Source: Selaginella moellendorffii (lineage: Eukaryota > Plantae > Lycopodiophyta). From it: a DNA stretch of 64,000 nucleotides. The notes under the pieces were generated by a model. It did no database searches, was not told the origin of the DNA, and saw only the letters and a list, made by a program, of their open reading frames with translations. The translations under genes were made by a program, and so were the position numbers. This document shows positions 1 through 52,589 of the stretch, in pieces. Every line of letters starts with the position of its first letter. The first letter of the stretch is position 1. The stretch covers positions 157,864 through 221,863 of the forward strand of contig NW_003314324.1 of assembly GCF_000143415.4 (NCBI RefSeq), given 5' to 3'.

Positions 1-310
1 GGCGGGGTCGGGGTTCATGTTTAGCAAAGGGGCCAAACCAAGGGAAACGTATAGTAGAGGGAAATTCAAGAAGAGTTTCTCTAAGAATGAGTCCTTGGGG
101 TTCCGGAAAGGCAAATCTGGTGGCCAGCGAGCGAGTACGTGGGGGAGTCAAGCAAAAAGAGACAAACCCACGGATAAGAAGGTCAAGTCATATAGCAGCA
201 TGGGAAATAACGTATGCTACAACTGCGGCAAAGCATGACACTTTTTGAGGGAATGTCCCTACCCGAAGAAAGCCAGAGCCAATATGGCCATCAAGTTGGG
301 TGAAGTCTAA
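1..310 (+). pseudogene. gag: gag C-terminus with CCHC zinc knuckle
   Basis: CYNCGKA*HFLRECP at about 216-260; internal stop at the conserved Gly. Confidence 0.85.
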
Positions 311-363
311 ATGAGGTATGTGATCTAGTCCCTAACCCAAAGTTACTCATTACACGAGCAACT

Positions 364-3268
364 TTGGTAGAGAGTCATTCGCGACATCTACTAGCCCTCC
401 GAGGGAAGCTCGGAGGTAGCTTTGTTAAGATCTTTATTGACATGGGTGCTTCAGACAATTTTGTGGCTGCAGACATAGTCCGGCAAGCTGGACTAATGGT
501 GCAGCGGCTAGGCGAACCAACGACTATAGAGTTTGTTCAAGGTAGCCAAAGCACCGATGAGGTATTTCGATAAGCGAGAGTCGAAGTAAGGACATAGAAA
601 GTAGACATGGATTTCACAGTGTTGGACATAGTGGGATTTGACGTGATCTTCAGAATGAATTGGTTCAATCGGTTCGTGGTAGCCCTACATGGACAAGGTT
701 CTTAAGAACCTTGTGGTACTGGCGAATGCCCAGGGAAGAAGATTTAGGGTGGAGGCCCAGGATCTAAAGGTAGGGCAAAGCAAGGCCAAAGATTCTTGCT
801 TAAACCTGGTGTCCACGAGAGGACAACTCACTAAAGAAACTAAGGCAGCATTTTTGTGCTTACTCTCGGTGAAGAGTGACAAAAAGACAAGAACGGAAGA
901 AGTACCTTTAGTGATCTAGTGGGTGTTGGACCAATTCCAGGATACCATGCTAGAGGAGTTACCAACGGGGTTGCCCCCCGCACGACCGATAGAACATAAG
1001 ATTGAACTGGTCGAGGGTGCTAAAGCGGTGGTTTGTCCCCCCTATCATTTGAACAAAAAAAACTCAAGGAGCTCAAGTGCCAACTAAAGGAGTTGGTGGA
1101 CAAAGGGTATGTTAGGTTGAGCAAGTCACCATATGGGGTGCCAGTGTTATTTGTGATAAAGAAAGATGGATCTATGCACATGTGCATAGACTACCAATTG
1201 CTCATCAAGTATACAAAAAGAACAAGTACCCTTTGCCAAGGATTGAGGACCTGTTCAATAGGTTAGGAAAGGCAAAATACTTCTTGAGGATTGACCTAAA
1301 CTCAAGATACTACCAGATTAGGGTAGCAGAGAAAGATGTTAAGAAGACAATCTGTCGAATCAGGTATGGGAGCTTTGAGTTTCTGGTGATGCCCTTTGGG
1401 CTGTGCAATGCGCCAGCAACGTTTTCGGCGTTGATGAACGATATCTTTGTACCCTATCTAGATCACTTCGTGGTTGTCTATATCGATGACATCCTGATCT
1501 ATAGCGAGACACTAGAGGAGCATGTCGAACACTTGGCAAAGGTGTTTGAGAAACTAAGAGAACACAAACTGTATGCTAAAGAGAGCAAATGTTACTTTGC
1601 TCAATAAGAGGTAAAGTTTCTCGGGCATGTGGTGGGCCAGGACGGGCTCAAGGTGGACCCGGAGAAGGTCCAAGCGATCCAAGAATGGGAGCGACCATTG
1701 AATGTACATGAGCTAAGGGCATTCTTGGGGCTATGCAATTACTACCGAAAGTTTATCAGACATTATTTGAGAGTAGCCCTACCTTTAACGGACCAAACGG
1801 GAAAAGGGAAGATGGTATGGACAGTGGAATGCGAGGCGGCATTCGTCCACCTCAAAGGGAAGTTGAGGAAGGCTCCCGTGTTGGCATTACCAGACTTTGG
1901 TAAGGACTTTGAGGTAGAAACGGATGCTTCGGACGTTGCATTGGGTGCAGTTTTGAAGCAAGATAACCATCTAGTAGCATTCTTCTTGAAGAAGTTAGAC
2001 AAGGCTCAATAGAAGTGGCCTGCCCACGAGAAGGAATTGTTTGTGGTGGTCAAGGCACTCAAGGAATGGCGACACTACCATGGGAGACACTTCAAGGTTT
2101 ACACGGACAATGTGGCAACGAAACACTTCTTGTCACAGCCCGACCTGAGAGGGAAACAGGGTCGGTGGGCCAATGCCTTGGCCGAGTTTGATTGCGAGAT
2201 TTTGTACAAGCCTGGGAAGAGCAATATCGTGGCGGATGCGCTAAGTTGAAAAGCGAGCTTGAGGTTGGCGATATCCAGGGCGACAGCAACCTTTTGGGAC
2301 GATGTGCGGACAGCATATGAAAACGATGGTTTAGCACAAGAAGTGTTGCTGAGGAATCTAGAGGCACGGGAAGCTCACCAGAGAAGTGAGCTGCCAACGG
2401 AAGAGAAAACGGGCTATGCAGAACGCAACGGACTCATCTATTACAAACAAATGAAGGTGTATGTTCCAGAAGGGGAACTAAGGAAGGTAGCTTTAGAAGA
2501 GTGTTATGATGGACCTCTTGTGGGACACGACGGAGTGCTCAAGACGATGGGCTTACTCAAGAGGAAGTATCACTGGCTAGATATGGCTAAGGACGTCCAA
2601 GACTATGTAAAGACATGTCTAACATGTCAGCAGGTAAAAGCTGTGATTAAGGCTAGTGGGGGCTTGTTGCAAAGCATCCCAATTCCGGATCGTCTGTGGA
2701 AATGTCTTATGATGGACTTTATTATGGGACCCCCCCCCCCCCCCCCCCAAGCGAGGGGTTCGATGCGATATTCGTGGTGGTGGACCAATTTTCGAAGATG
2801 GCACATTTCATACCCACCACAACGGAAGTGGATGTGGAAGGTGTGGCAAAGCTGTTCTTTGAACAAGTGGTTTGAGTGCGGGGAAGGCCAGAAGAGATTA
2901 TTTCAGATCGAGATAAGATCTTCACTAGTAGATTCTGGAGAACTCTCCTAGAATAGTATCGCACCAAGTTGAAATTCAGCACCACCTATCACCCACAGAC
3001 AGGTATTGGGTATTAAGTCAAGTTTGATGGCACTAACACTTCTTGACAGATGGATAAATAGAAAGGGTGAATAGGTAGCTGGAGGATTATTTGCGATGCT
3101 ATGTCTCGGGAGACTAGACCGATTGGGTAAGTCATTTGGGACTTGCGGAAATGTGTTATAACAACTCACCACATTCGAGTATCGGGGTGAGTCCATGGGA
3201 AGTCATCAATGGGCGAGCTATTGAAGGTCCTGTAGAACTCGGCGTGGCCGAGTATCACGGAGAGTTAC
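364..3268 (+). pseudogene. pol: gypsy pol part 1: protease, RT, RNase H, integrase core
   Basis: IFIDMGASDNFV (PR); MPFGLCNAPATF and VVVYIDDILIYS (RT); VETDASD and VYTDN (RNase H); GH...CLTCQ (IN Zn finger); SDRD and STTYHPQT/DG (IN). Many stops; poly-C frameshift near 2730-2748. Confidence 0.95.
3003..3049 (+). other. 47-nt GT-AG intron-like insertion in the integrase catalytic core
   Basis: CAG|GTATTG...CTAAC...TTGACAG|AT. Removal restores HPQT-D-G*IERVNR*LEDYLRCY and the reading frame. Confidence 0.8.
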
Positions 3269-5130
3269 TGTGAGACACAAAATCCCTAGGCCCCAAAGTG
3301 GAGCCGGAAAGGGTGCCACGTGGTAGTGGCTGAAGCGAGAGCCAAACGAGCGTAACACGTTTGGACCAAAAGCTCAGACTTGAAAAGTCAAGAGCGGGAG
3401 TGGAACTCCAAAAGAAGTGCTCAAGGAACGAGCACGAAGCGAGCAAAAAGCGAGGCTCCAAAAAGGGACCCAAAAGGACCAACACATGACACGTGGAAGT
3501 GTCCGAGATGGACTCAAGTTGGAGTCCGAAGTGGAGTCCGAGATGGACTCGAGTTGGAGTCCAAAGTGGAGTCCGAGATGGACTCGAGTTGGAGTCCGAA
3601 GTGGAGTCCGAGATGGACTCGAGTTGGAGTCCGAAGTGGAGTCCGAGATGGACCCGAGTTGGAGTCCGAAGTGGAGTCCGAGATGGACCCGAGATGGAGT
3701 CCGAGGTGGACCCAAGATGGACCCGAAATGGAGTCCGAGATGGAGTCCGAGGTGGACCCGAGATGGACCCGAAATGGAGTCCAAGATGGAGTCCGAGATG
3801 GACCCGAGATGGAGTCCGAGATGGACCCGAAATGGAGTCCGAGGTGGACCCGAGATGGACCCGAAATGGAGTCCGAGATGGAGTCCGAGATGGACCCGAG
3901 ATGGACCCGAAATGGACCCGAAATGGAGTCCAAGATGGACCCGAGATGGAGTCCGAGATGGACCCGAGATGGAGTCCGAGATGGAGTCCGAAGTCGAGAC
4001 CGAGACCGGGACCGAGACCGAGACCGAGACCGAGATCGGGACCGAGAACGAGACCGAGGCCAAGGCCGAGACCGAGCCCGAGCCCGAGTCCGAGTCCGAG
4101 TCCGAGTCCGAGTCCGAGTTCGAGTCTGAGAGGGTGAAAGCCCAAAGCGTTCATCTCCCAGACCCTGGGGGGTTTGGTGAGCTCCAAAAGTATAGTAGGG
4201 GGGAGGACTGCAGTGGAGCCAGTTTGGCCAGGAAAGGCCAGTTTGGCCCAGGAAGGCCAGACCCAGTGTTGGGTGATGAGCTGCCCACTGGGAAGTCCAA
4301 GACTAGAGTGAACACAGACTGACAAGTGGGGTAGCTTGGTGAAGTGTTCAAGAGCCGGCTCTAGTTCCCCCGGGAGATCGACTGGCCGATGCTCCCAGTC
4401 NNNNNNNNNNNNNNNNNNNNNNNNNNNNNNNNNNNNNNNNNNNNNNNNNNNNNNNNNNNNNNNNNNNNNNNNNNNNNNNNNNNNNNNNNNNNNNNNNNNN
4501 GAGAGTACCCAGGTGGCTCGCGTAAGGCCACGGTGTTCCGAAAGGTTGTCCCAAAGGCCCAGACTGTGGAAAGGAAGAGGAGCAGTCCTCTGGGGTAGTG
4601 ACCAAGGACACAGTCGTGTGGTGAGGAAGTCCCAGAGGACCATGGGACTTAGTGGTCGGGCCTGTGGGTCTCGATCCAGTGGCAGTGTTGGCAAACACGG
4701 CCAGGGGCAGAAAGGGACTTAGTGGGGACTGACAGAGGGATATTGGGGAAGGCTATTCCCCTTGTCGGTGGGCATCCTAAGGATGCTAAGGAGTGGATCT
4801 GAGATGACCACTCACGGATGGTTTGCCTAGTCTTGGAGGGCCAAGACGGTGATGCAAGTGGTGTTGGACCACCAGTGTGACTAAGGTAAATGGGCATGGC
4901 CTTAGCGTAACGGGCCGGTACGTTGGTGATACCTTGGGGTGTCGATCATGGGATCGGACACGTGGAGCACTTGGACCAAGTGCTAAGGTTGAGTGGCATG
5001 GATGCCATTCTCGGGGCTAGCAAGCCCCAAGTCCTGAGTTGGACTTATGGAGGTTGTCAATGAGACTCCTCCAAGTGGTCAGAGGTGTGGTTAAGTGACT
5101 AAAGTAAAATGCAAAATTTAGTCGCTTACA
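3269..5130 (+). repeat. 5' LTR of A copy 1 (contains an N gap)
   Basis: TGTGAGAC...GCTTACA. Confidence 0.93.
3500..4128 (+). repeat. LTR-internal minisatellite: GAGATGGAGTCC / GAGATGGACCC units, then CCGAG(A/G/T) hexamers
   Basis: Directly visible. Also at about 9470-10088, 15080-15495, 55680-56260, 61580-62080. Source of the SISD/MESE/RPRP ORFs. Confidence 0.95.
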
Positions 5131-5133
5131 ACT

Positions 5134-5145
5134 TGGTATCGGAGC
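5134..5145 (+). promoter_or_regulatory. Primer-binding site, tRNA-iMet type
   Basis: TGGTATCGGAGC, 3 nt after the LTR end. Confidence 0.9.
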
Positions 5146-7614
5146 TGTTCCTTAGTCCGACTTTTATTGGTGCTCAAGTATATCACCACTAGTGTTGGCA
5201 TCGGAAGGTCCGAGGAGTGGGCCTATCCTTGAGGAGTAGCAAGTCGGGAAGACATGGCTCTCCATTACAGTTCATGTGTGAACTTGTAGACGAGGTGGTG
5301 GATAGAAAAGGGCCAATAATGGAACGACTTTGGGATCTTGGGAACAGTGCAAGGTTTTCCTCATTGAGTTGAGGATGTGATCCGGATGAGCATTTGTCTC
5401 AGCAAATTGGCTAAGGTTGTTGTGGTAAACAACTAAAGTTGGGATCATGGGAAAGATAGAGACTCCAAAACAATAAAGGAGTCACAAGATTATCCTCATA
5501 TAGTTGAGGTTGGTGCTCATGAATGTGAGACCAAAGGTAATGACTGTGGGAGGTCAAATACGGAAGAGGACTCAAGTCCTTGAAATGGTAGCCGGGGCTA
5601 CCTTTAATAAATGCTGGAAAAACCCAAGGAATTGGGGGGTGTACTTAGAGATGAGTTGGTATTCTCATCACATGGACAAGTAGTCCTAAGGGGCAAAGGT
5701 TGCCTAGAGAACAAAATCAAGTGTCGGAGTAACACTTGTGAAAATAGTCCTTTTGAGTAGGACAGGAATGCAAGAAGTGTATTCCAGTGAGCTAGTGCCT
5801 CACAAGTAGGACCTTACATGTCTGTGGATTAACCAAGTCCAAAACTGCTGGATGACTCAAGTAGAGTCAAGGGATGGTCCTAAAAGGACTGATGGAAGCA
5901 TTTGGACTAATGTGTGTTGTACCCCACAAAGGATTGGGGGGGATCATAGGATCCAAGGATGAGAACAGAGGGTATTTCATTGATGGCAAAATGTGCTATG
6001 CTAAAGTTATGGGAAAGGTGTTCCCAGAAGAAAACAACTTTGACATAAAGTTGTGTGTGACCTCTATAGGGCAGTGCTAATGGATGGTTGGCATGAGAAA
6101 GAGCGGTGTTGGTCTTGGCAAAGACTTAGACACGAAGGGGAAATGTCATAGAGGTAGGCTCGTGGAGCCGATGGTGTGGAGACACCAAATGTGCCAAGGT
6201 GTGATACCTTAAGGCTATGTTGGTGGGTTCATGAGAACCCCTTGCCAAAGGAATCCCAATGGAAATGGGAATGGCATAGCCTAAGCTGCAGAGCATGCAA
6301 TTGGAGTGTGGTGACCCAGATAATGATGGAGGTGTGAAAGCACCAAGCAATGAGTTGTAGGACTTGACAACTATGAGGCAACTAAGCCAGAGGTGCAAAA
6401 TAACTGGTTAAACGGGTAGAAGGTAGCTACCTAAGACTTCTTAATAGCATAAGGAAGTTGGATATACCCTTACGGGGGATAAGTTGCTTGTGTTGCGATA
6501 TAGTAAGTCAATGTCATAAAAGGAAATACTCGTTGTCAAGAAAGCCATCATTGGGACACCCGGACACTCTAGAACACTAGAAGGTGGTGTTTGATGTCGC
6601 GAGGGCAATGGATAAAGCCCAAGGGACTAAGTCCCTAGTGAATGATGGATAGAAGGTGCTATCCAAATGTCCAAGGTTGCGGAGACAGGAGAGGACTGTC
6701 TACCCGAGTTGGACAAAGCCAAAAATGGAATTTTGGCAAGGCTAGTGATGGGCATGTAAAGGCCCATAAGCAACAATGTAATCCCAGTGTGTGAGATTAT
6801 AAGGTGAGCATACCCGGATTGAGGAACCACTCCCTAGGCTACTGGGTAGGTTCATCCCTAAGAATACTTGCTAAAGCGTGATAGAAAGTGCAAAGCTATT
6901 CTCCTGGTCTGGAGGAGAATGACCAAAGGAAAGGTGTGAAGCCAAAAAGCAAGGAGTAAGGGGATAGAACCGAACCATAGGAATCAAAGGGCATAACCAA
7001 GGTTGGTTATGCCAGCTGAGAGTGGAGAATTAAGTGGGGGCTCAAGGGTGTTGCCGCTAGCAACCGTGATGCCATGGAGAGTCTAAAATATGGAATTGTC
7101 CATGTTAGACTATGTGGCATTTTGAAAGCTTGCAAAAAGGGAGGCCTTAGCAAGCTGAGGGACAGAGTTCCTTCAAGGTTCCCAAAGACGATTCCAGGTA
7201 GCTTAGTACCTAGAAAGGCCAAGTGTAAATGGTTCATGGAACGCGCGAAATCAGAGTGGCGCAGCAGAAGCGTGGTCTTGAAGCTTGCCATGAGGCAAGG
7301 CTATCAAGGTTAGGGAAGTAGTTCCCGAGTGTTCAAAGAGAGGGCTTTGAACGAAAGTCGATGGTCAAGGACTTTCACGCTTATGCAGGAACCATGTTAC
7401 CGTGGTCGGAGGACTTGCCAAGCGAGATTGGCACGTCGGGGGAACAAATACCCTAGTTGAAGGTGATAACTTCAAAAAGGGTGGGCCATGGGGCCAAGCA
7501 TGGAGGAGTCCATGCATGATCACAGACATGTCAAGTGAGAGGACTTGGCAGTGTGGAGGAACTAGGTTCTTAAACTGTGATCTGTAGCGCGCTTTAAAAA
7601 TAAGTTGGTGCACC

Positions 7615-8021
7615 GGCGTGGGGAGTCACGCCAGGCATCTTGTGTGATGCCGTCCGTAGATGCATATACGGAGGTTGGGTTCGAGTCCCGACCCTCTAGT
7701 GCTTGGGTTCGAGTCCCAAATCACTAGGGCGTGGTGATGGTTTGGAATATGAGGACACTCCTATTTCGGTGGTCATGGACTCTCAGTGGGGAAACTGGTT
7801 TGGGCACACCGCCAAGCGAGGGATGCCTCGGAGTCGTGATGCACGGTTAGATTGCTTAGTGTGAAAGCTCGGCATATCTAACTTGAACGCTTTGGTGCAA
7901 GTGGCACCAAGGACGTGGTGAGTGAGATGGGGACACCTAATCTCAGTTGCTATGGACCCTTGGCCGGAAGGGCTGGCTTGGGCACACCGCCAAGTGTGGG
8001 GGATGCCCCCGGGGTCGTAGT
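7615..8021 (+). ncRNA. Putative cis-acting structured RNA in A internal region (hairpin array, two T-loop hairpins, two GACA-hairpin/3-way-junction units)
   Basis: Stems readable by eye, with covariation against the homologous segment in the gypsy B 3' UTR (11868-12046). Confidence 0.6.
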
Positions 8022-9226
8022 TAACAAGTTAAAGGTCTGGAAGACCTAGTACTTATTGGCAAACCTGTTAAGGTGTCGAGGTGAGATCACTAGGTGATCT
8101 TGTGGCTAAATAGGGACAAGGTCCTTGTTTGGGTTAAGGAATAAGGTTCCTAGTTCAAAGTGTTGATTTGAACTATTGATGATGGTGTGGCTTGGTCAAG
8201 GTGACCAAGTGGGAAAAGCACCTTAGGGAAATGAGCTATGTCATTGCGATGGCATAGTGTGTCCAAGGAAAGTAGTCTCTAAAGAGACCCATGAGAGGGT
8301 CACAAAGTTGGGCCGAGGATAGAGCCCACAGCAAAAGATGCTAAAAGAGACTTACTAGGGGTGAACACCCTAGTCTTGGCAAAGCAGAGCCTTTGCTATG
8401 GAATCAAAAGAATACCTCAAGGAGGGAGGTAGAGATTCGATGTTGCTTGGTGGACCAATCAACGGATAGGAGCAAAAGATGAGTGGCCAAGATAGGGCCG
8501 TGGAATCCCTGGGAAGGAATCCAAGTGACAAAGTTAGGCAAGGAACACTAATGTGTTGGACGCTAACAAATTGCGGGAAAGGAAGTGTGTTTCCAAGGAT
8601 GGATTCTGAATTGCTCCGATTTGGCGAAAGTGGAAGCTCCAAGGGAGGGAGCGGTAAGGTAGCCAAATGATAGGGCGATGGACAACCCTAGCACAAAGTG
8701 TGATAAATGGAACTTAGTGCCCAAGGTGGCACGAAATAGAAGAGAGGATGATGGTGCCCTCAAGTAATGAACTTCCTAGGATAGGGAAGTGGAGTCGCAC
8801 AATCTGTGCAATGCAAGGTGTTGGAGACACCTAGGAAATTGACTTCCAAAAGTCAAAAGAGTAAAAGTTCCAAGGTGCAAACATTCACTAGAAGGAAATT
8901 GAGACTACTCAAGAAGGAGTAGTGGGATTGACTTAGAGAAGGGTCTTTAAGAGGTTTAGCGAGAATTAAACCAATAAAAGGAGAGAACCACTACATGTGG
9001 TCCAATCAGTCTCTAAGTTGGGGAGACTACCCTCCTTAGAGGATAGGCAAGGCATGGTGAGCCTTTGGTGTCAAACCATTGAGGCATATGTAAAAGGCAT
9101 GGTGAGCCTTCAATGTCAAACCATTGACAAATATTGGCTAGGTGCCAAGGATGGAAATGGTAACACATGTGAGTGTTACTTTACAAAATGGTTTACCGTT
9201 CGATGAGGACATCGAACTTCGTCTAT

Positions 9227-9238
9227 GGGTGGTGGAGT
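9227..9238 (+). promoter_or_regulatory. Polypurine tract of A
   Basis: GGGTGGTGGAGT directly before the 3' LTR. Confidence 0.85.
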
Positions 9239-11084
9239 TGTGAGACACAAAATCCCTAGGCCCCAAAGTGGAGCCGGAAAGGGTGCCACGTGGTAGTGGC
9301 TGAAGCGAGAGCCAAACGAGCGTAACACGTTTGGACCAAAAGCTCCGACTTGAAAAGTCAAGAGCGGGAGTGGAACTCCCAAAGAAGTGCTCAAGGAACG
9401 AGCACGAAGCGAGCAAAAAGCAAGGCTCCAAAAAGGGACCCAAAAGGACCAACACATGACACGTGGAAGTGTCCGAGATGGACTCGAGTTGGAGTCCGAA
9501 GTGGAGTCCGAGATGGACTCGAGTTGGAGTCCAAATTGGAGTCCGAGATGGACTCGAGTTGGAGTCCGAAGTGGAGTCCGAGATGGACTCGAGTTGGAGT
9601 CCGAAGTGGAGTCCGAGATGGACCCGAGTTGGAGTCCGAAGTGGAGTCCGAGATGGACCCGAGATGGAGTCCGAGGTGGACCCGAGATGGACCCGAAATG
9701 GAGTCTGAGATGGAGTCCGAGGTGGACCCGAGATGGACCCGAAATGGAGTCCAAGATGGAGTCCGAGATGGACCCGAGATGGAGTCCGAGATGGACCCGA
9801 AATGGAGTCCGAGGTGGACCCGAGATGGACCCGAAATGGAGTCCGAGATGGACCCGAGATGGACCCGAAATGGAGTCCGAGATGGACCCAAGATGGAGTC
9901 CGAGATGGACCCGAGATGGAGTCCGAGATGGAGTCTGAGATGGAGTCCAAAGTCGAGACCGAGACCGGGACCGAGACCGAGACTGAGACCGAGATCGGGA
10001 CCGAGAACGAGACCGAGGCCGAGGCCGAGACCGAGGCCGAGCCCGAGTCCGAGTCTGAGTCCGAGTCCGAGTCCGAGTTTGAGTCTGAGAGGGTGAAAGC
10101 CCAAAGCGTTCGTCTCCCAGACCCTGGGGGGTTTGGTGAGCTCCAAAAGTATAGTAGGGGGGAGGACTGCTGTTGAGCCAGTTTGGCCAGGAAAGGCCAG
10201 TTTGGCCCAGGAAGGCCAGACCCAGTGTTGGGTGATGAGCTGCCCACTGGGAAGTCCAAGACTAGAGTGAACACAGACCGACAAGTGGGGTAGCTTGGTG
10301 AAGTGTTCAAGAGCCGGCTCTAGTTCCCCCGGGAGATCGACTGGCCGATGCTCCCAGTCCAAGTGTGGGTGGCACTACCTACTTGGATACCTGGTGTGGC
10401 TCAACGGAACCCGCTCTAAGCCCATGGCTAGAGCACCCAAGGGCAGAAGGCGAGGAGAGTACCCAGGTGGCTCGCGTAAGGCCACGGTGTTCCGAAATGT
10501 TGTCCCAAAGGCCCAGACTGTGGAAAGGAAGAGGAGCAGTCCTCTGGGGTAGTGACCAAGGACATAGTCGTGTGGTGAGGAAGTCCCAGAGGACCATGGG
10601 ACTTAGTGGTCGGGCCTGTGGGTCTCGATCCAGTGGCAGTGTTGGCAAACACGGCCAGGGGCAGAAAGGGACTTAGTGGGGACTGACAGAGGGATATTGG
10701 GGAAGGCTATTCCCCTTGTCGGTGGGCATCCTAAGGATGCTAAGGAGTGGATCTGAGATGACCACTCAGGGATGGTTTGCCTAGTCTTGGAGGGCCAAGA
10801 CGGAGATGCAAGTGGTGTTGGACCACCAGTGTGACCAAGGTAAATGGGCATGGCCTTAGCGTAACGGGCCGGTACGTCGGTGATACCTTGGGGTGTCGAT
10901 CATGGGATCGGACACGTGGAGCACTTGGACCAAGTGCTAAGGTTGAGTGGCATGGATGCCATTCTCGGGGCTAGCAAGCCCCAAGTCCTGAGTTGGACTT
11001 ATGGAGGTTGTCAATGAGACTCCTCCAAGTGGTCAGAGGTGTGGTTAAGTGACTAAAGTAAAATGCAAAATTTAGTCGCTTACA
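9239..11084 (+). repeat. 3' LTR of A copy 1
   Basis: Direct repeat of 3269-5130. Confidence 0.95.
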
Positions 11085-11089
11085 GTTAC

Positions 11090-11712
11090 CCGCAGTGGAG
11101 GCATTCATGGCGGAAAGACTCAACATTTGGAATCTAGTGAGGGATTCCTTGGAACGGGCTCAACAAAGGCAAACCAAGTACGCGAACCAAAAGCACCGAG
11201 ATGTAGAGTTCCAAGTTGGGGAGAAGGTGACCAAGAACCTCAGGCTACCAAGTGGGATCAGCCGGAAGTTGACCCAAAGGTAAAATGCATGTATTCCTGT
11301 AAATGAATTGATCTTGAGTTCCTTAAGAAGGTTCGCGGGGCCTTACGAGATTGAGGCACGAATCGGTAAAGTGGCTTACCGTCTCCGACTTCCTCGAGAG
11401 ATGGGGAAGATGCACCCAGTGTTCCACGTGAACTTACTCAATCCGTACATTGAGGATCCGCTTCGCAAGAACCAAGTAAGACCTTCACCTGAGGTTATCC
11501 AAGGGGAAGAGGAATATGAAGTCGAGGCCATCTTCAATGCGCGCAAGAGCAAGTGACAAAGACGCGAGGTGAGAGAGTTCCATGTGAAGTGGAAAGGATT
11601 TCCACACTATGAAGCAACATGGGAACCAGAGGAAAACCTAGCGAATGCATGAGATCTAGTGGAGGAATTTCTGCAAGGCAGAACTCTATGTACTTATGCA
11701 AAGTTCAATTAA
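11090..11712 (+). pseudogene. pol: gypsy pol part 2: integrase C-terminus (GPY/F) and chromodomain
   Basis: Joins part 1 in frame (YHGEL/PAVEAF) after removing A plus one TSD copy. FAGPYEI, HPVFHV, EYEVEAIF...FHVKWKGF...ATWEPEENL. Confidence 0.93.
11280..11330 (+). other. 51-nt GT-AG intron-like insertion in integrase GPY region
   Basis: CAA AG|GTAAAA...TAAGAAG|G TTC. Removal gives KLTQRFAGPYE; the insert carries an in-frame TAA. Confidence 0.75.
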
Positions 11713-12113
11713 AGTATCAATTTGCGAAGTTGAGTAGTGACATATGTTGGGACCTGAAGGCACGTCGAAGGTAAGCTAATTAGCATGGGTTAGCTAGGTC
11801 GACCAAGTGTAGGGCACTACACCCAACTCCCCGTGGGGATGTCGAATCCATAGACGTATTCTACGGAGGTTGGGTTCGAGTCCCAACCCCCTAGTAAAGC
11901 AAGGCTGGGTTCAAGTCTCGACCTCATACTAGGGCGTGGTGAGGTGAGGGGTATAGGGACACCTATATTCCGTTGTCATGGGCTCTTGGCCGGGGAGGCT
12001 AACTTAGGCACACCGCTAAGTGGGGGGATGCCCCCGGAGACATGGTCAACAACTCGTATGATAAAAAGAGACGTTCGATGTGGGCATTGAACTTCTTCCA
12101 TAGGTGGTGGAGT

Positions 12114-13236
12114 TGTAAGGAACTGACTCCCCGAGGTGTCGTAGGCTAAAGGATCCCCGAAAGCATAACCAAAATGACAAAGAGTTCATCGGATGGGACC
12201 GAGTTGAAGATTGAGTCCAAGACCGACTCTGAGACCGAGTTCGAGATAGGTCCGGGATCGAGTCCGAGGCCGAATCGGAGACTGAGTTCGAGACAAAGTT
12301 TGAGATCCGAATCGGGTCCAAGACCAAGTCCGAGGTCAAGTTCGAAGTCGAGTCCAAGATCGGGTCTGAGATCAAGTCCAAGATTGAGTCCGAGACCGAG
12401 TCCAAAGTCGGATCCGAGATCAAGTTCGAGACCGAGTCCGAATACTAATACGGGTCAAGGGGTGAAAGCCCAAAGCGTGCGTCTCCTAGGGCGGGGGGGG
12501 GGCTGCAGGGGGTTCCAAAAGTATAGTAGGGATAGTGAGGTCCAGGAACCAGTCTTGAAGGAACTCTCCAGTGGTGCTTCCAAATTGACTTGAGGTTGAG
12601 ACTGGGGCCAAAGGGCCTTGGGTGGGAGTGAGCATGGGCTTGGATGGTGCGGAGGGGCCACCTAGGGAAGTGCTCAAGAGTAACTCCCACTCCTGAAAGG
12701 GAAACCGACTATGGTGCTCCCGGCTCATGTGGAGTGGTGCCCCACTTGAGTACCTTGTGGCTTATTGGTCCTTGCCCTTCCTAGGGGCTTGGGCCCTCCC
12801 TTCGGGATGGAAGTGGGGGGGTAGAGGTACCCATACCGGGCCGTTAGGCCACGGTGTTTCGCCCCGATGTCCCGAAGCAAATGTTGCACCCAAGGCTTGG
12901 GATTTAGAGGGTCCTATGATCAAGTCTTGTTGTACCAAGAGGTGTTAGGAACATGGAGGCTTGGTGTGCTTGGTTGCTTGTGCCTGCAGGGAGTGTAGCC
13001 GAACCTTAAGTCTAGTCCAACCCGGGGAGGGGGATTGGGAGAGATTTGGGAATTCATGGATGGGTGGTTAACACTCCGTTGTTTGTGTAGTGAGTAGCTA
13101 AAACCAAATAGGACCAAGTAGGAGCTGGTACAATAAGTAGGAACCTTGGCGAGGGAACTTAGCACAAGCTAAGGCAGTGTTGGTCAGATAGACGAGGTAA
13201 GCTAGCAAATTGGAAAGGAAAAATTTGTGACTTACA
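12114..13236 (+). repeat. 3' LTR of gypsy family B (about 1.12 kb)
   Basis: TG...CA termini after the PPT; matches the inverted solo copy at 51357-52501. Confidence 0.92.
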
Positions 13237-14062
13237 ACACCCTCACTATCATATCCTTTGTGTTAGTCTCAATTTGGTCCCAAATGTTATTTATAAAAAG
13301 TGTCTAGATTTGCTCATTTAGCATATCTCTGGAATGTAGAGATTGTCTTGAACACAATGGTGTTCGTGTCGTGTCCAAAACATGTGTTCCTCAGGGGGGG
13401 GGGGGGGAACGGGATGTGGGGTATTCCAAATGTATAGTAGGGATAGTGGGTAGATTGAGCATGGGTGACAAACTTAAGGCATAGTTTAGCTCCCCCTTGT
13501 GTGTCTGTTTCTTTGTTCTGCATCCAGCTTAGGTCTAAGCCCAAGTTCCACACCATACTAGCTGGTGGAGTACTCATATCCTTGCATTAGGCCACTAGTA
13601 TGCTGAAATAGTGTCAAACTCCATTTAACTCTGTTTTGCGTGGTAGTCTTGGCATTAGGATGCTAGATGCTCTAAGACTGTTCCAAGTTGCTCCACACTC
13701 CTGTTCTTTTGCTCCTTAGGCTGTATGCTCAAGAGTCATTCTGTGCTCTAGTGGCATTACTCCTTGGCTCCATACTTGGGAGTTTGGCATTGTTCTTTCA
13801 TTCAGTGGCCCAAGGCCCTAAAACTTGCGTTCTGCACCACTATCCTTTGGACACGTGGTATGTGGCATGTGGGATATGACACGTGGCATGTAGAGAGTTT
13901 AGGTTTCTCTTCATGGTTATCCTAAGGTAAATCACCATAGGATAAAGGGTAAAAATCACATGCACTACATTTGGTATCAAAGGATACGTCTCACGAGTAC
14001 TATCCGATGAGATTGGGCAACTAGTTTCGTTACATACACAAAGATGAAAACGATGATTCGAG

Positions 14063-15707
14063 TGTAAGTGACTAATTTTTCCATTCTAGTTTAGTCACTT
14101 AACCACACCTCCGACCACTTGGAAGAGTCTTACTCACAACCTCCATAAGTTCTATTCCGGACTTGGGCATACTAGCCCCGAGAATGGCATCCCCGCCACT
14201 CAACCTTTGCACTTGGCCCAAGTGCTCCACATGTCCGATCCCAAGACCGACACCCAAAGGTACTACTAACATATCAGCTTGTTAGCTAAGGCCATGCCCA
14301 TTCACTTTTGCTACACTGGTGGTCCAATACCACTTGCATCACAGTCTTGCCTCTCCAAAACTGGGCCATCCATCCATGAGTGGTCATCCCAGATCCACTC
14401 TTTAGCATCCTTAGGATGCCTACAGACATAGGGAATAGCCTTCCCCAATATCCCTTTGTCAATTCCTACCAAGTCCCTTTTCTATCCATGGCTATGTTCG
14501 CCAACACTGCCACTAGATCAAGGCCCGCAAGCTCGGCCACTAAGTCCCATTGTCCTCTGGAACTTCTTCACCACATGGCCATATCCTTAGTCACTACACT
14601 AGAGGACTGTTCCTCCTCCTTTCCTTAATTTGGGACTTCGGGATAACATTTCAAAACACTATGGCCCTACGCAAGCCCCGTGGGTACTCTCCCCACCTTC
14701 TGCATTTAGGTGCTCTAGCCATGGGCTTAGAGCGAGGTTCCATTGAGCCATGCCAGGTATCCAAGTAGCTAGTGCCACCCACACTTGGACTAGGAGCATC
14801 GGCCATTTGATCTCCCAGGGGAACTAGAGCTGGCTCTTGAATACTTCACCAAGTTACCCCACTTGTCAGTTCGTATTCACTCTAGCCTTGGACGTCCCAG
14901 TGGCTATCCCATCACCCAACATCTGGGTACAGCCTTCTTGGGCCAAACTAGCCTTTCCGGGCCAAACTGGCCTTTCCTAGCCAAACTGGCTCCACTGGAG
15001 TCCTCCCCTACTATACTTTTGGAGCTCACCAAACCTCCCAGGGTTTGGGAGATGAATGCTTTGAGCTTTCACCCTCTTAGACTCGAACTCGGACTCGGAC
15101 TTGGACTCAGACTCGGACTCGGATTCGGACTTGGGCTCGGTCTTGGCCTCGCCCTTGGTCTTGGCCTCACCCTTGGTCTTGGCCTTGGCCTCGGTCTCGG
15201 TCTCAGTCCCAGTCTCGATCTTGGTCTCAGTCCCGGTCTCGGTCTCGGTCTCGACTTCGGACTCCATCTCGGGTCCTTCTCGGATTCCATCTCGGGTCCA
15301 TTTCGGACTCCATCTCGGGTCCATCTCAGTCCATCTCGGACTCCATCTCAGTCCATCTCGGACTCCATCTCGGGTCCATCTCGGACTCCATCTCAGTCCA
15401 TCTCGGACTCCATCTCGGGTCCATCTCGGACTCCATCTCGGGTCCATCTCAAGCTCCATCTCGGGTCCATCTCGGACTCCATCTCGGGTCCATCTTGGTC
15501 CTCTTGTGTCTCTTTTCTAGAGACTCACTTATTGCTCATTTCATGCTTGTTCCTCGAACACTTCATTGGGAGTTCCACTCCCGCTTTCGACTTTTCAAAT
15601 TGGAGCTTTTAATCCAAATGTGTTATGTTTGTTTGGCTTTCGCTTTGGCCACTACCACATGGCACCCTTTTGGCTCCACTTTGGGGCTTAGGGATTTGTG
15701 TCTCACT
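14063..15707 (-). mobile_element. Solo LTR of family A
   Basis: Reverse complement of the A LTR; TSD TCGAG/CCGAG; the empty site is visible in inner C near 18450. Confidence 0.9.
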
Positions 15708-17218
15708 CCGAGTGGGTACACATTTGGGTGTAAAGGTTTCACATTTGTTCCTTAGGTATGGATTTTGGTTACCTTTTTGTACCATATTGAGTGAGCTTGC
15801 TCTTGGGCTCATAAGATGGACTGAGATGTTCCGTTTGCACAAGAAAACGAGCGCTTAGACATGAGCGCTTGGGCTCGTGAGTGAGGTGCATTAGCAACTC
15901 AAGGTTTCACTTTGAGTTGGCAGGATTAATATTAGCCTATCAGTGGTTCCATGAGTTATTCCATGTACCGTGGGTGAAAGTAAACCTTTTTTGGGTTTGC
16001 TATGAGTGGCAAATAGGCTAATCTATATCTGTTTAACATTGCACTAGTAGATCCTTCCTAAACATGATTACAAGTGGACCAATCAAGATTGTAGGGATTA
16101 GTCTATTAGTTCAAGTAGTCATTACTGTGCTCTCTCATAAACTTTTCTTGGATGGGACTAAAGGCAATGCAAATGCAAGCTTGAGGTTTGGTCAAAGATG
16201 AAATTGAAAAGAGAGTTGTTAGAGATGAAGGATCAAACATAAAATCATTTTCTCTTCTTGGAAAGATGATTTGCAATGAGGTGTTAACTCATTGCTCATG
16301 TTCATCTTATGCAATCAAGAGTCCCTATCTTGAATTAGGTATGATGGTTTTATTAATGATGAGTTATGGGATGGATAATGGTGAAGTGCTAAACCATTTT
16401 GTTTAGGCTTGCTATTGAAGACTTGGCTTATAATGCTCAATTCTTTTTGGGGAACCTTACTATTATTCCTTAAGTAGTTTGGTGTTGGATTAGTTTTGAG
16501 TTTGGTCGGAAAGAGAGTGGCATGAGCTTGTCAGTGTTGTGAACAAAAGTTAGTAGTGTTGGGTGTTGTAAATCTTTATTGGTGAAGTGTAACATTTATG
16601 TTGCATTTTGTCAAATTAAGTTAGCACTTGATACTCACATAAAATTTTAAAGTAATAATGTGGGCTTGCTCATTGTGTTGTTCAATTAATGATTAAGTCA
16701 TTGTGAACTTATATCATGTCCATGTGATAATGAGCAATAAGTTTACGAAGTTGCTTGGTTATTCGATGATTAACCCCAAAGTGGTTGATGGTGAGATTAA
16801 TCTACTTACATGTAGTAGCATTGTAGTAATTTTGACTAGATTCTCAATGATGATCCATTATGCTAAACTTAAGTTAGTACTTTGTTTCTTTGAGGGTTGC
16901 TTATTGAGGTGTTAGAAAAGGGTTGTAACATTCATTTGCTATAACTCGTCAGTTGATCCGTTGGCACTTGAAGTAGATTGTTGGATGGAAAAAATATGTA
17001 GCTAAAGCATTAATTTTGCTAGCACCTGTGCTAGTGGAGATGATATAGTTATGTCGAGTGATGAGGAATTTTCCTTAGATCTTGATTTTCTATGTCATTT
17101 TTTCTTATTGGATCTTGAAAGTGGTTGAAGAAGAGTGTTAGTGCAATGTGGATATCCAAAGAAATAGTTTTCGTGATCAAGCTTTAGATGTTCATTTTCC
17201 ATTTTGCGGATGTCAATG

Positions 17219-20200
17219 TGTCGCGAATGTGACTTCAGGTATCGAAAGTTACCTGTCGGCTAGTCCTTTCGGATATTCTTACCTTACTGCCACGACGGCA
17301 GGAGGTCGGTATTGCTGGACCCTTTATCAGTCCCTCTTGTGCTAGTGGAGTTAACTGGGCATTTCGAGTGTACTTAGACCGAACGAGCATAAGGACGGAA
17401 TTCCTGTGTTATTAGCTAAGCATACTTAGCCCGGTAAGGAGTTCCCGTCTCGTTTTGTCTTGCACTTGCTAGTGACAAGAACCCTCGCGACATTGAGCTT
17501 GGTCCCTCAATATCGCTAAATGATAGCTTACCGTGTCTGCCAAACACCCTCGCTATCATGCCCTTTGTGTTAGTCTCATTTCGGTCCCAAATGCTATTTA
17601 TGGAAAGTGTCCAGATTTGTTCATTTGGCATATCTACGGAATGTAGAGATCGGCCTGAACACAATGGTGTTCGTCCCGTGTCCAAATTCGCAATCTAAGG
17701 ACATTCCATATTTAGTAAGTTTCGAGCTTGTCCTAGAGACTAACTCCTGATACTAAGGGAGGCTTGGGGTGAAAGCCCAAAGCGTGTGTTCCTCAAGGGG
17801 GGGGGGGCTATGGGGGGTTCCAAATGTATAGTAGGGATAGTGGGTAGGTCGGGCATGGCCGACCAACCTGAGGCATAGTCTAGCTCCCGCTTGCGTGCCT
17901 GTCCTTGTTCTGCGTCCGGCTTGGGTCTAAGCCCAAGTTCCATTCCATGCTAGCTGGTGGAGTACCCATATTCTCACGTTAGGCCACCGGTATGCCGAAA
18001 TAGCGCCAGACTCCGTTTGGCTCCATTTTGCGTGCTGGTCCTGGCATTGGGATGCTGGTTGCTCTAGGACTGTTCCAAGTTGCTCCGGGCCCCTGTCCCT
18101 TCGCTCCTTGGGCTATATGCTCGGGAGTTGCTCTGTGGTCCGGTTCCATCACTCCTTGGCATCACGCTTGGGAGTTTGGCACCGTTCCTTCGTTCAGTGG
18201 CCCAAGGCCCTGAACCTCAGGTTCCTGTGGACACGTGGCATGGACACGTGGCATGTGACACGTGGCATCTGTCACGTGGCACAAAGAGGGTTTAGGTTCC
18301 GCTTCGTGGTGTTATCCTATGGTAAATCACCATAGGATAAAGGGTCAAAACCACGTGCGCTACATTTGGTATCAGAGAATGAGTCTCAGCGAGTACTATT
18401 CAATGAGATTGGGCAACTAGTCTCGTTGCATACGCAGAGATGAAAACGATGATCCGAGTGGGTACACGTTTGGGTGCTAAGACTTCGCATTCGTTCCTTG
18501 GGATAGGTTTTAGTTACCTTTTTGTTCCATATTATGTGAGCTTGCTCTTGGGCTCATAGGGTGGACTGAGTTGTTCCGGTTGCACGAGTTTGCGCTTGGG
18601 CTCGTGAGTGAGGCACATTAGCAACTCAAGGTTACACTTTGAGTTGGCAGGATTAATGTTAGCCTATCGGTGGATCCATGAGTTGTTCCATGTACCATGG
18701 GTGAACGCAAACCTCCCTGGGTTTGCTAAGAGTGGCAAATAGGCTGGTCCGTAGCTGTTTAGCACGGCACTAGTGGATCCTTCCTAGGCATGATTATAAG
18801 TGGATCAATCAAGACTATAGGGATTAGTCTATTGGTTCAAGTAATCATTGCCGTGCTCTCTCAGAAACTTTTCTTCGATTGAACTGAAGGCAGTGTGAAA
18901 GCAAGCTTGAGGTTTAGTCAAGATGAGGCCGGAAAGAGAGTCGTCAGGGACGAAGGATCAAATACGTAAATCATTTTCTCTTCTTGGAGAGATGATCTGC
19001 AACAAGGTGTTAACTCATTGCTTGTGTTCACATCGTGCAATCAAGAGTCCCTATCTTGATGCATGTTGGAGATGGTGGTCTTACAATGGTGAGTTATGGG
19101 ATGGATAGTGGTGAAACACTAAACCATTTTGTCTAGGCTCGCTATTGGAAGACTTGAGTTGCAATGCTCAATTCTTTTCCGGGGAACCTTGCTATTGCTC
19201 CTTGAGTAGCTTGGTGTTGGATTAGTGTTGAGTTTGGTCGGAAAGAGAGTGGCATGAGCTTGTCCGTGTTGTGAACAAAAGTTAGTGGTGTTGGGTGTCG
19301 TAAACCTCTATTGGTGGAGTGTGGCATTTATGTTGCATTTTGTCGAATCGAGTTGGCATTTGATATTCACATGAACGTTTGAAGTAATGACATAAGCCTT
19401 GCTCATTGCATTACTCAATTGATGATCAAGTCATTGTGATTTATATCATATCCATGTGATAATGAGCAATGTTTTTACGAAGTTGCTTGGATAAATGATG
19501 ATCAACCCCAAAGTGGTTGATGGAGAAGCTAGTCTACTTGCACGAAGTAGCATTGTAGTAGCTTTGACTGGATTCTCAATGGTGGTCCATTATGCTAAGT
19601 TTAAGTTGGTACCTTGTTTCCTTGAGGGTTTGCCCATAAGGTGTTAGGAATGGGTTGTAGCATTCATTTGCTATAGCTCATCTGTTGATCTGTTAGCACT
19701 TGGAGTAGATTATTAGATGGAGAAGGTGTGAGGTTGATGCATTGACATCGCTAGCATTTGTGTTAGTGGAAGTGGCATTGTTGATTCGAGTGATGAGGAA
19801 TTTTCCTTAGAGCTTGATTTTCCATGTCATTTTTCTTGTTAGTGTTTTGGCTTCACATTGGATCTTGAAGGTGGTTGAAGAAGAGTGTTAGTGCAATGTG
19901 GATATCCGATGATGTGGTCTTTGTGATCAAGCCTTGGATGCTCATTTTGCACTTTGCGGATGTCAGTGTTGGATATTGGAACAATGGGCAAAGATGTTCA
20001 ATGCTTAAGCATATTATGGGTCATGAGAATTTGTGTTGAGGTGAATCTATGTGAAGTTGTTTGTAGGAAGAAGTTGTTTGAGTCGTGAAAGTTTGCATTC
20101 CTGGACTGAGAGTCATTCTTTCTCTAGGATGGAAAGTTTTCCACAAATTTTCTTAGGCTTTTTCAATGGCTGATCTATCGGTCACTTTGCTCGAAAACCA

Positions 20201-23200
20201 TTCCGTTTTCGTAAGCCAGTACAAACTAGTGAAGGGGTTGAGTTGACTTCAGTTAACTTAGACCTTGATAGGTAGTTTGTATAATGCGGCCCGAAAGGGA
20301 TGCTGACTTTTGAGGCTAAAACAATTGAGTTGGATAGAGTCTAGAGTTGATATCGAAAAGTGGCCGTTGCACTTTTCTCAGAAGGGTGACTCTTGTGCCT
20401 TTCTTTTGTAGCATTATGCTCGGTGGCAGGTTGCACCTTGCATTTTGTTTAGACTCTATGAGAGTAGTGAGCTCTCACTGATCTTGACTTGGTCTTGGTG
20501 GCTGCACCTTGGCTGAGGATGGTGATGTCCAACTTAGTTGTTTGAGGTTGAGATGTTGGTACCCGTACTATAGCTTTGTCTATGAGGAGGTTGTGTACCG
20601 ATATGAGTCCATCTCATGGTCTTCACTTTAGTTTTGACTGAGTGTTGATCACATAGCTAGCCTCTTCAAGGCATGCTCAGAGCTATTGACTAAATGCATT
20701 AGTGAGCTTATTGCGGTTGAATTGGATTCGAGTGGTCATTTAGTTTGTACTTATCTATGAACTTTTATCTCGTACATGGGGTATTATGTTCATGTTGGAC
20801 AAGTATGTAACTCGATGACATGAGTTGGTGTTTGGGTCTTGTGAAGGCAAGTTGAGGAGTGATTGTTAGTTGCTTTGTGACTAGTGATTACTTGTAGACT
20901 TCATCAAGGACCGTTGACACTTGCTTTGCTCAATGATGATTTAGCAGTGATGGGCTTGCTTTACCGGATGGTGTTGCGGAGGATCGTGTCGTTAGACTTG
21001 CATAGGTTTTCTATGTTAGTATATCGATTCTATCTCTGTCGATATCATTTGGTTACGTTTAGTCCGTGGTGTTGGATTTCATTGAGTCTTGGATGTGGTG
21101 ATTCACTCTTTGATGAAATGTTATCTGTAACTGAGTATTGTTGAAGGATTGGTCTCGGATACTAAGTATAGTATCTTCGACTTTGGTTAGCTTGGTTGCT
21201 GGAAAGCTCCGAGTGGTGATTCACTCGTGCTTTCTTCTAGCTTTGTCCTGATGTTGATGGCATTGAAGTGATGCCTTGTCATTGATATTGTTGATATTGA
21301 GATCTGAGTGAAATGAGATATCCTTCCAAGGATTGATATGGAGTTTCATTAATCTTAATGAAGATAGTGTTGATGATTTGGATATGGCTTTATGTTGTTG
21401 GCATTTGTGCATTTTGCTAGTTAACAACTCTGTTGACGTTCAAATGAACTGAGTGGCAAGTTGAGTTAGTTGTGCTTTAGACGAGATTATTTAGTAGGGG
21501 TTGAGCTTTGAGCTTTTCCTTGAAAAGTGATTTAGTCATGGACTATGCTAACTCTACAAGTGGGAGAGTTAGTGATCGATGTTGGAATATTTTGAATCCT
21601 TATGGGATTTTAGTTGAAATATATCAATCATTGATGATTCTTCTTGTGCTTGCTATGAAGTGAGTTACGTCTTGCTATAGATGGATTCATGGAAGATCAT
21701 TTAGTGATCACTTGTTGAGCATAGCTCCATTGTGCTTAGCTTTTGGATTGATGCAGAAATGCTCTTCATTAGCTTTAGCATTATGAAGTTTGGCTTATGG
21801 ATGTGTTGAGGAAGATATTATGAGTTGCATCACGATTTCTTCTTTCACATTGAAGTTAGCTTTTATGAGACTTGTGATCATTATTAGGCAAGACTTGGCT
21901 ATAGGCTTCTTCGAGCTTTGGTTCTTTGAGTTTTATGCTCATTGTTCCATTTGTTAGAAGTTGTTGGGGAAGGCATTTTGGCTCATTAGCTTCGATGTTG
22001 AAGTTTGCTTTTGCATCTAGCAATCATTGGTGATAATTGACTATCATCTAAGATAGTTGATTATCCTTGTCAAGGGTTTTGCTTGATTATTGTTGGTATA
22101 GAATGATTTGCTGTTCTTCGGGATAGTCGATTCTTTCTTCGATGATGATTATGCATTTCTCTATTGATAGGATGATTGATGATCTTTTATGGTGGTTAGT
22201 TGTTCTCTTTGATGGCTTGTGGCTTTTCGCAATATCACATGTTCTTTGTGATTTGCTCTGGATTGGTCTCTTGGGTTTGAGACATCAGTAGGATGTTGCT
22301 AACACTTGCTTAGGCAACTTGAGTTCCTTGGTATTGTTGGCTGGGATCTATTCAGATTGGCTTTTGTGATAGTTAGCAGGCATGAGTGTTTGTTGGTCTT
22401 CCCACATTCATTCTCTTCTGTTGATTATTGCTCGAGTTAGTTTTGATAGATTTGGATGTTATTTCCTTTGGGTGATACATTCGTGAGCATTATGCTTGTT
22501 AGTCAATGATACTTTGAGTTCTCTCTAGTAAGTTGTTGGCTTACTGTCTGCTATCTTCGGTAGTTCAGTTTTATCATTGCATTTACTTGATGATATACTT
22601 GCTATTGAATTTTGTTGGATGGTGCATCCTATGTTTTCTAATGATAGTGATCTTGGTGGTTCCTATACTGTAATACTAGTTTATCGGATGATAACTTACT
22701 TGGAATACTTTTGTGTTCTAATCTAAGCTTTATTCCCTGATAATTAAATCTCTAAACTATCATTGTCTATGACTTTGATATTGTCCATCTATTGATCTTT
22801 GAGTTTGGGCCAGTAATGGGCAGACTGGCTTCGGCACTTCGTGTGCATGGTGAAATCTCTAGTCATGGGGTAGCTCGTGTCGANNNNNNNNNNNNNNNNN
22901 NNNNNNNNNNNNNNNNNNNNNNNNNNNNNNNNNNNNNNNNNNNNNNNNNNNNNNNNNNNNNNNNNNNNNNNNNNNNNNNNNNNTGACTGTGCTAGTGGAG
23001 ATGATATAGTTATGTCGAGTGATGAGGAATTTTCCTTAGATCTTGATTTTCTATGTCATTTTTTCTTATTGGATCTTGAAAGTGGTTGAAGAAGAGTGTT
23101 AGTGCAATGTGGATATCCAAAGAAATAGTTTTCGTGATCAAGCTTTAGATGTTCATTTTCCATTTTGCGGATGTCAATGTGTCGCGAATGTGACTTCAGG

Positions 23201-30630: not shown

Positions 30631-30634
30631 GCCC

Positions 30635-45105: not shown

Positions 45106-45489
45106 TGGCCGAGATTTTTCATCCGGGCCGTTGGTACGTGGATAGCCAACGGCCGACATTGATGCATGATAGTAGGGTTTTGGGAAAAGGTTGGCAATTT
45201 GTAATATGACCTAGCACCAATAAAGTATGCCGTTTATTCCTTATTGGATGACGTGGCGTCAACGCTGTGCTGACGTGGCATTGACTTGACACGTAGAATA
45301 ATGTCTGTCAGTCAACATTTGATTAATCTGAGCCGTTCTAGCAGCTCGCTGCCAAAATGCTGCTCGAGTAAAGAACCGAAGTGGGAGAGGAAGAGAGAGA
45401 GAGAGGGAGAGAGAGCTCTGGCCTGGCCTCTTTGGAGCTCTTCTTTAGGTCATAGACTCTCTTCCTCTCTATCGAGCTCGAGCTCGAGC

Positions 45490-52501: not shown

Positions 52502-52589
52502 TTAGGAAGTCCAAATTCAAGAGTTTATATTTGGTATTAGAGAGGGTTTGGGTTCGACTTTATTGATTGGCTAGGGGAATCAATCACAT

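Follow-up and report, generated by a model that had tools for sequence, protein, structure and literature searches.

Evidence for two short spliceosomal introns, kept in DNA and removed from RNA, inside the integrase of a Selaginella moellendorffii chromovirus

Introduction

How can a retrotransposon that has multiplied through a genome carry introns inside its own integrase? To our knowledge, plant LTR elements are generally described as being without introns, with Ogre and EVADE as exceptions. In PMC12786077, the loss of an intron from the sense strand is given as the classical proof of retrotransposition. The question is raised here by a stretch of 64,000 nt of Selaginella moellendorffii DNA (the window), in which a short insert divides the catalytic core of the integrase of a Ty3/gypsy chromovirus. 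The original prediction, made from the letters of this DNA, took the insert to be a spliceosomal-type intron and proposed that Pol is translated from spliced mRNA while unspliced RNA is packaged.

Results

Anatomy of the element

The features of the element are collected in Table 1. Protease (PR), reverse transcriptase (RT), RNase H, and integrase follow one another in the order of a Ty3/gypsy chromovirus, and a polypurine tract (PPT) and an LTR with TG..CA ends lie at the 3' side; the 5' LTR is outside the window. The RT matches other proteins at 57-73% identity. No Pfam match was found for positions 2-238, at the end of gag, where the label of CCHC knuckle is one that we take from established knowledge. 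The chromodomain at the C-terminus of the integrase was recognized by PF00385 with an E value of 2.4e-15 and can be reached only with intron 2 removed. The window copy is dead, with several stops and frameshifts in addition to the nested insertion at 3269. This nested element is not part of the family structure since an RNA-labelled contig crosses the empty site: a 734-nt contig of run X15, recognized in the two parts by its equal length and depth, links 3068-3268 to 11120-11490 across 30 nt, as expected where the nested element is absent.

The frame between the introns measures 318 bp, counting nine bases that are present in other copies, and the frame after intron 2 measures 309 bp from the first ATG. 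The total length of the element is about 7.4 kb plus the leader. When the visible body of the element was scanned for the motifs, only variants of intron 1 were returned; intron 2 was missed, and the scan is, therefore, insensitive. A solo LTR of the intron-bearing family was found on the minus strand at 51357-52501 (1145 bp, 87% like the 3' LTR).

Ginger-type DNA transposons have introns in a gypsy-like integrase and contain neither RT nor LTRs. This identity was ruled out for the window element, where RT, RNase H, and an LTR are present.

Table 1. Features of the intron-bearing element and of the insertion nested in it (window coordinates).
Feature	Position	Strand	Basis or details
gag 3' end with presumed CCHC knuckle; start upstream of window	1..300	+	translation
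Aspartic protease, decayed	304..570	+	weak Pfam RVP_2/gag-asp_proteas, under curated cut-off
Reverse transcriptase	1116..1604	+	PF00078, E 3.6e-27
RT connection and RNase H	1608..2249	+	PF17919/PF17917 on 1608-2009; remainder by translation
Integrase exon 1: H2C2 zinc finger, core to HPQT, both catalytic D	2250..3002	+	PF17921, PF00665, Ty3 integrase 7Q5B E 2e-10
Intron 1	3003..3049	+	47 nt, GT-AG, branch 3033-3037, in-frame stop 3014-3016, GACAG flanks
Integrase exon 2, first part, with catalytic E	3050..3268	+	cut-register reading, homologues, D(35)E spacing
Nested LTR element interrupting exon 2, pol undetected	3269..11084	+	LTRs 3269-5130 and 9239-11084, TSD GTTAC; self-BLAST
Integrase exon 2, second part, to KLTQ-R	11085..11279	+	homologue alignment
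Intron 2	11280..11330	+	51 nt (one extra base in 38% of DNA depth), GT-AG, inside GPY/F motif
Exon 3: rest of GPY/F (SH3_Tf2-1) domain and chromodomain, stop 11710-11712	11331..11712	+	PF24626, PF00385
Polypurine tract	12100..12113	+	sequence
3' LTR, 1123 bp, TG..CA, poly-G run 10 nt	12114..13236	+	sequence comparison

Intron 1 divides the catalytic core

The insert between exons 1 and 2 was found to be as predicted, with a donor (GTATTG), a branch motif (CTAAC), and an acceptor (TTGACAG), a length of 47 nt that is not a multiple of three (3n+2), and a 5-bp direct repeat at its boundaries (GACAG at 2998-3002 and 3045-3049). Seven cut registers were tried, and 3003-3049 alone gave GT..AG ends. 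Read without splicing, the frame continues as HPQT-GIGY and reaches a stop four codons into the insert. When the insert is skipped, the catalytic triad has exactly 35 residues between its second D and its E, giving the D(35)E spacing. The insert is T-rich and GC-poor (T 0.34, GC 0.38) compared to its flanks (T 0.23-0.25, GC 0.46-0.47).

Homologous proteins agree with the claim that GT-AG removal restores both frame and motif. In an alignment of 16 of 36 matches, the 12 homologues that cover the site all read HP[QE][TS]DGQ with no gap. A motif count in 186 proteins gave 89 matches, 78 of which have D/N-G directly after the motif; inspection by eye assigned eight of the remaining 11 to other sites and three to this site, with a substitution and no insert. 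At locus L030, which contains a gypsy element, the two pieces flanking this site are one codon apart. The GT donor, branch motif, and YAG acceptor are those of a putative U2-type spliceosomal intron. The predicted match in size to the host introns was only approximate. The five introns of a host adenylate kinase gene are 52, 68, 73, 119, and 218 nt long, placing the insert close to the shortest of them and just under it, with no exact match.

The origin of intron 1 was also considered. Introners are mobile introns, one sequence of which recurs at many unrelated sites. The first 20 nt of intron 1 (≤3 mismatches allowed) occur once in the 64-kb window, where the chance expectation is 0, and no second copy was found there. 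Intron 1 is identical at 20 of 47 positions to the 47 nt that directly precede it (window 2956-3049), and both have the form GTAT..GACAG. With these shared ends fixed, however, the tandem-duplication score was reached by 95/3000 and 215/3000 shuffles (p 0.03-0.07) in the course of four comparisons, and no such upstream likeness was found for intron 2. A tandem-duplication origin is, therefore, not established. The boundary repeats of both introns are 5 bp, compared to 2-3 bp in the five host introns, with the fifth base at intron 2 being private to the window copy. The GACAG repeat may be a weak hint to the origin of intron 1.

A second intron lies beyond the nested insertion

The original prediction pictured a single intron and missed a second one, which lies beyond the nested 7.8-kb insertion and separates KLTQR from FAGPY in the GPY/F motif. 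It begins with GT, ends with AG, and contains an in-frame stop immediately at its start. Exactly these 17 codons are absent from 16 of 16 aligned homologues, and the three-residue spacing of the skipped form is present in 51 of 61 motif matches. A GT donor and a YAG acceptor, again suggestive of a U2-type intron, can be assigned to intron 2; the acceptor is AAG in the window copy and CAG in 96% of DNA depth.

An in-frame coding insertion of 17 residues was weighed as another reading of this insert. It was ruled out by three findings: a variant of the stop codon never accounts for 8% or more, many copies differ by the one-base indel, and the insert is skipped by RNA-labelled contigs.

Both introns are present in genomic DNA copies

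From DNA run X1, 31,829 contig records were placed on positions 1-3268. Summed depth, which is not equal to copy number, was 849k in the bin of intron 1 compared to 749k and 833k in the neighboring bins. Indels that are private to the window copy appear as troughs in DNA depth (places 311, 700, and 1054), and there is no trough at intron 1. Three long DNA contigs, 81-83% alike, span intron 1 with 0-1 gap letters. The intron-1 joint was not seen among the 15 of 94 DNA joints listed. For intron 2, the depth within the intron was 77% of that in six flanking bins, with deeper dips in exon 2 where the window copy departs from the family. The exact intron-2 joint had a depth of 0 among 3,991 DNA contigs, where all five joints were listed, including one of depth 2.4; such a count could miss intronless DNA copies that are rare, given that contigs lose low-frequency variants.

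These data answer whether the insert at intron 1 is private to one copy. The many private stops and indels of the window copy lend themselves to a reading of the insert as a private mutation or assembly artefact of a dead element. Unlike the private indels, however, the insert has a DNA depth equal to that of its flanks, and diverged copies carry it. This reading is refuted, and we give it practically no weight.

Both introns are skipped in RNA-labelled data

The RNA status of runs X15-X20 is a guess, and X15 and X19 come from separate studies with samples that differ from that of the DNA run. One contig of X15, with a depth of 3.1, connects 2888-2997 with 3045-3126, a 47-nt skip of intron 1 with sides of 110 and 82 nt, in a shifted register that the GACAG repeat allows. 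The raw RNA-seq runs X21 and X22, about 1.4 Gb each, yielded three reads and one read on the element, respectively, showing very low expression; the X22 read ends before intron 1. One X21 read covers both 2983 and 3115 and has 49 nt in a bin where contiguity requires at least 70. From this depth, rather than from a listed joint, we infer that the read skips intron 1.

At intron 2, contigs from X15 and X19 skip exactly 51 nt with GT..AG ends, the shorter side being 163 nt. Two contigs of X18 enter intron 2 unspliced, and only unspliced starts are found there in that run. Removal from RNA with presence in DNA, as in a U2-type intron, is thus seen at intron 2 as a joint in two of three RNA-labelled runs and none in the DNA run, and at intron 1 in one RNA-labelled contig and, presumably, one raw read. 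Spliced RNA forms had been sought as a check on the original prediction, and they were found at both introns in thin numbers (X15, X19, and probably X21).

The spliced contigs could also come from a few intronless master copies that supply the integrase, while the intron-bearing majority is defective and mobilized in trans. The X15 and X19 spliced contigs have in common a variant at 11244 that makes up 0.1% in DNA, which would suit a small sub-lineage, and reverse transcription of any spliced RNA would make such copies, whose absence cannot be shown from contigs. However, no DNA contig has the intron-2 joint even though one joint as shallow as 2.4 in depth was listed, and a 2012 study found no intact copy and a consensus with a split layout (PMC3350952). 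In addition, the synonymous bias at variants of 8-70% DNA depth, given below, indicates selection on the intron-bearing majority itself. We consider intronless masters improbable.

The exons downstream of the introns show coding constraint

All 26 listed DNA differences in the downstream exons and intron 2 were classified, and three of them fall in the intron. Of the exonic differences, 12 segregate among copies, at 8-70% of DNA depth, and 11 of these 12 are synonymous third positions (6/7 in exon 2 and 5/5 in exon 3). Compared to the 34% expected for transitions, this excess has a p of about 6e-5, with the 12 sites representing related lineages that are not independent. The synonymous share is 1/5 for differences nearly private to the window copy and 2/6 for rare ones. 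The contrast between segregating and private sites is the pattern of purifying selection on an amplifying family. Because 11 of the 12 segregating exonic sites are synonymous, exons 2 and 3 appear to have been translated during amplification. In unspliced RNA, in-frame stops precede both exons and, given this selection, splicing would therefore have taken place during amplification.

Another explanation is that the family is integrase-defective and borrows the integrase of a relative (e.g. SM2-Galahad), with the host spliceosome removing AU-rich inserts incidentally and with no relevance to transposition. SM2-Galahad is intact and present in hundreds of copies (PMC3350952) and could supply integrase in trans. 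A pol-less LTR element is abundant in the window, which makes trans-mobilization likely in this genome, and the expression of the intron-bearing element is very low (three and one reads in about 1.4 Gb each). A borrowed integrase does not account, however, for the excision of two separate inserts to the base with restoration of conserved spacing, for the coding constraint on exons behind both stops, or for the retention of the CAG acceptor in 96% of DNA depth. This explanation is very improbable.

The element is likely SM1-Galahad

SM1-Galahad was described in S. moellendorffii as a family of hundreds of copies, none of them intact, with a consensus of split layout (Novikov et al. 2012, PMC3350952). 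The published element is about 7.5 kb long, with LTRs of 1076/1146 bp that contain a poly-G of 11-25. Its 1295-aa Gag-Pol ends in a core integrase without a chromodomain and is followed by two short ORFs, one of 316 bp and a last one of 309 bp that contains the chromodomain (PMC3350952). The window element shares the host, the total length, the LTR size (1123/1145 bp), and the split-ORF layout, having an ORF that ends in the core integrase and short ORFs of 318 and 309 bp. It differs in the poly-G, which is 10 nt here, and in the 309-bp ORF, which was published as 113 aa and is counted here as 103. The window element is, therefore, likely SM1-Galahad, an assignment made on anatomy and not on sequence identity. 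With the identity drawn in this way, the two introns can explain the short ORFs of SM1-Galahad. Neither "intron" nor "splic" appears anywhere in PMC3350952, where the ORF split is left unexplained.

The sister family SM2-Galahad has one uninterrupted Gag-Pol of 1577 aa (PMC3350952) and, unlike the window family, no such introns. For comparison, splicing in the window family is expected to give about 1557 aa, provided that ORF1 has the published 1295 aa. The intronless SM2-Galahad would point to intron gain in the SM1 line. Sequence searches found no close relatives of the family, with best identities of 48%, 54%, and 73%, and no longer protein relatives were present among 387 candidates. A 20-nt junction pattern matched 29 metagenome loci, none of which (0/29) is related to the element, and viral contigs contained one distant gypsy locus, which is intronless.

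Other features of the window

The LTR element of 7.8 kb that is nested in exon 2, in which no pol was detected, has a second copy on the minus strand at 54697-62317 and related LTR copies at 14063-15706 and 52589-54252. Its LTRs are about 1.85 kb with a long tandem repeat, a PBS-like site lies at 5133, and its PPT is identical to that of the pol element. The two elements also share 3' untranslated pieces (7653-8027 with 11835-12052). The LTRs of the pol-less element show 25 differences over about 1120 aligned bases and 6 over 630. It may be a large non-autonomous partner that depends on Galahad enzymes. The TATAGTAGGG motif is present in the LTRs of three different families (4190-4200, 12519-12532, and 13432-13445) and is a candidate common promoter element.

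Copia-type remnants at 30569-33516 include a gag knuckle, gag-pre-integrase, rve (31280-31819), and inverted duplicated pieces. Host genes at 41.9-43.1 kb (-), 43591-47049 (+), and 36855-38342 (-) comprise the adenylate kinase (five introns, 52-218 nt), two tandem receptor-like protein 51 LRR genes, and an uncharacterized 495-aa ORF. Three host proteins encoded in the window group with S. moellendorffii proteins. Two 1.3-kb copies, 17026-18364 and 22987-24326, are 99.5% identical and lie beside an assembly gap (22884-22983); they are either a young LTR pair or an assembly duplication.

Discussion

We read the window element as a dead copy of a high-copy S. moellendorffii chromovirus, likely SM1-Galahad, whose integrase gene contains two short spliceosomal introns that are kept in DNA and removed from RNA. 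Active integrase would likely be made only from spliced mRNA, with copying from unspliced RNA. We place the probability of this reading at about 0.78. As read from the sequence, unspliced RNA encodes Gag, PR, RT, RNase H, and a truncated integrase, which terminates 35 residues past the second D and short of the catalytic E. If only intron 1 is removed, the product is a catalytic core that lacks the chromodomain and the remainder of the GPY/F region; with both introns removed, the full protein results. Splicing is needed for the integrase alone, with its catalytic E, GPY/F region, and chromodomain, since the sequences for PR, RT, and RNase H precede intron 1. The proposal of a Pol translated from spliced mRNA is thus supported for the integrase and does not extend to the three upstream enzymes. 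As for the packaging of unspliced RNA, we infer it because the DNA copies keep both introns.

Ogre, a Ty3/gypsy element of the Tat clade, retains an intron in genomic copies that is spliced from a subset of transcripts and is needed for the downstream Pol domains (PMC6317226, PMC12786077). The window family resembles Ogre in genomic intron retention and splice-dependent Pol domains; the Ogre-type intron, however, lies between the GAG-PROT and RT ORFs, whereas both introns here are inside the integrase. BARE1, EVADE, and Drosophila copia produce spliced Gag RNAs, where splicing sets protein ratios and unspliced RNA is replicated (PMC3735527, PMC5580714), and CRR splices out rt (PMC3735527). In those elements splicing removes or disables Pol (rt in CRR), while here the full protein arises by splicing and the truncated one comes from unspliced RNA. 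Foamy virus likewise makes its enzyme from a spliced pol mRNA and uses full-length RNA as its genome, but its large splice removes gag, its Pol is a separate protein, and it has no small introns within a domain (PMC7828637). Penelope-like elements also retain introns through retrotransposition, although they use a non-LTR mechanism and have no integrase, unlike the window family (PMC8557442).

No report of an intron inside an LTR-retrotransposon integrase was found in the excerpts of full-text literature searched, including PMC2864245, PMC6317226, PMC3350952, PMC10886601, PMC12440569, PMC7175516, and PMC6839031; subscription papers, Repbase annotations, and most supplements may mention one. 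Splice-dependent Pol is already known from Ogre and foamy virus, and introns inside the integrase would be the new part in the literature searched.

In the preferred reading, unspliced RNA would be the template that is packaged and reverse-transcribed, and spliced mRNA would donate full Gag-Pol to the same particles. An excess of Gag over integrase must be achieved by single-ORF LTR elements (PMC5580714), and incomplete splicing could keep the integrase scarce relative to Gag in such an element. Spliced RNA would be excluded from replication, most simply via a separate RNA pool as in BARE, where an uncapped pool with a separate promoter is the sole holder of the R region and keeps spliced RNA out (PMC3735527). 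By this analogy, a BARE-like two-pool exclusion is the most likely model, and the alternative would be selection against intronless daughters.

In that alternative, the introns are real and needed and spliced RNA is not selectively excluded; intronless daughters arise and are lost by worse replication, for example through an overdose of integrase in each particle, the loss of a cis signal, or quicker silencing. Two points speak for it: the spliced RNA would retain the PBS, PPT, and leader, leaving no sequence bar to its packaging, and LTR elements require an excess of Gag (PMC5580714). SM2-Galahad and other single-ORF relatives nevertheless replicate without such introns (PMC3350952), and BARE demonstrates that exclusion of spliced RNA does occur in plants (PMC3735527). 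We regard the loss of poor daughters as rather unlikely, and it is a variant of the best explanation that is compatible with it.

A further scenario can be offered tentatively as one possibility. SM1-Galahad may have gained two host-type introns after the split from SM2-Galahad and thereby a three-way splice switch, in which unspliced RNA is the genome and the source of Gag-RT, singly spliced RNA gives an active core without the chromodomain, doubly spliced RNA gives a chromodomain-targeted integrase, and spliced RNA is barred from reverse transcription. If this is true, splicing would set both the dose of integrase and the choice of target.

A family that has amplified to hundreds of copies with two 50-nt integrase introns must separate the RNA that is translated from the RNA that is copied. 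The integrase introns would be a natural, sequence-readable marker for how an LTR element chooses its genomic RNA, and, with an intronless sister family, they offer a datable case of intron gain. Screens based on ORFs would score all copies of such a family as dead or chromodomain-less.
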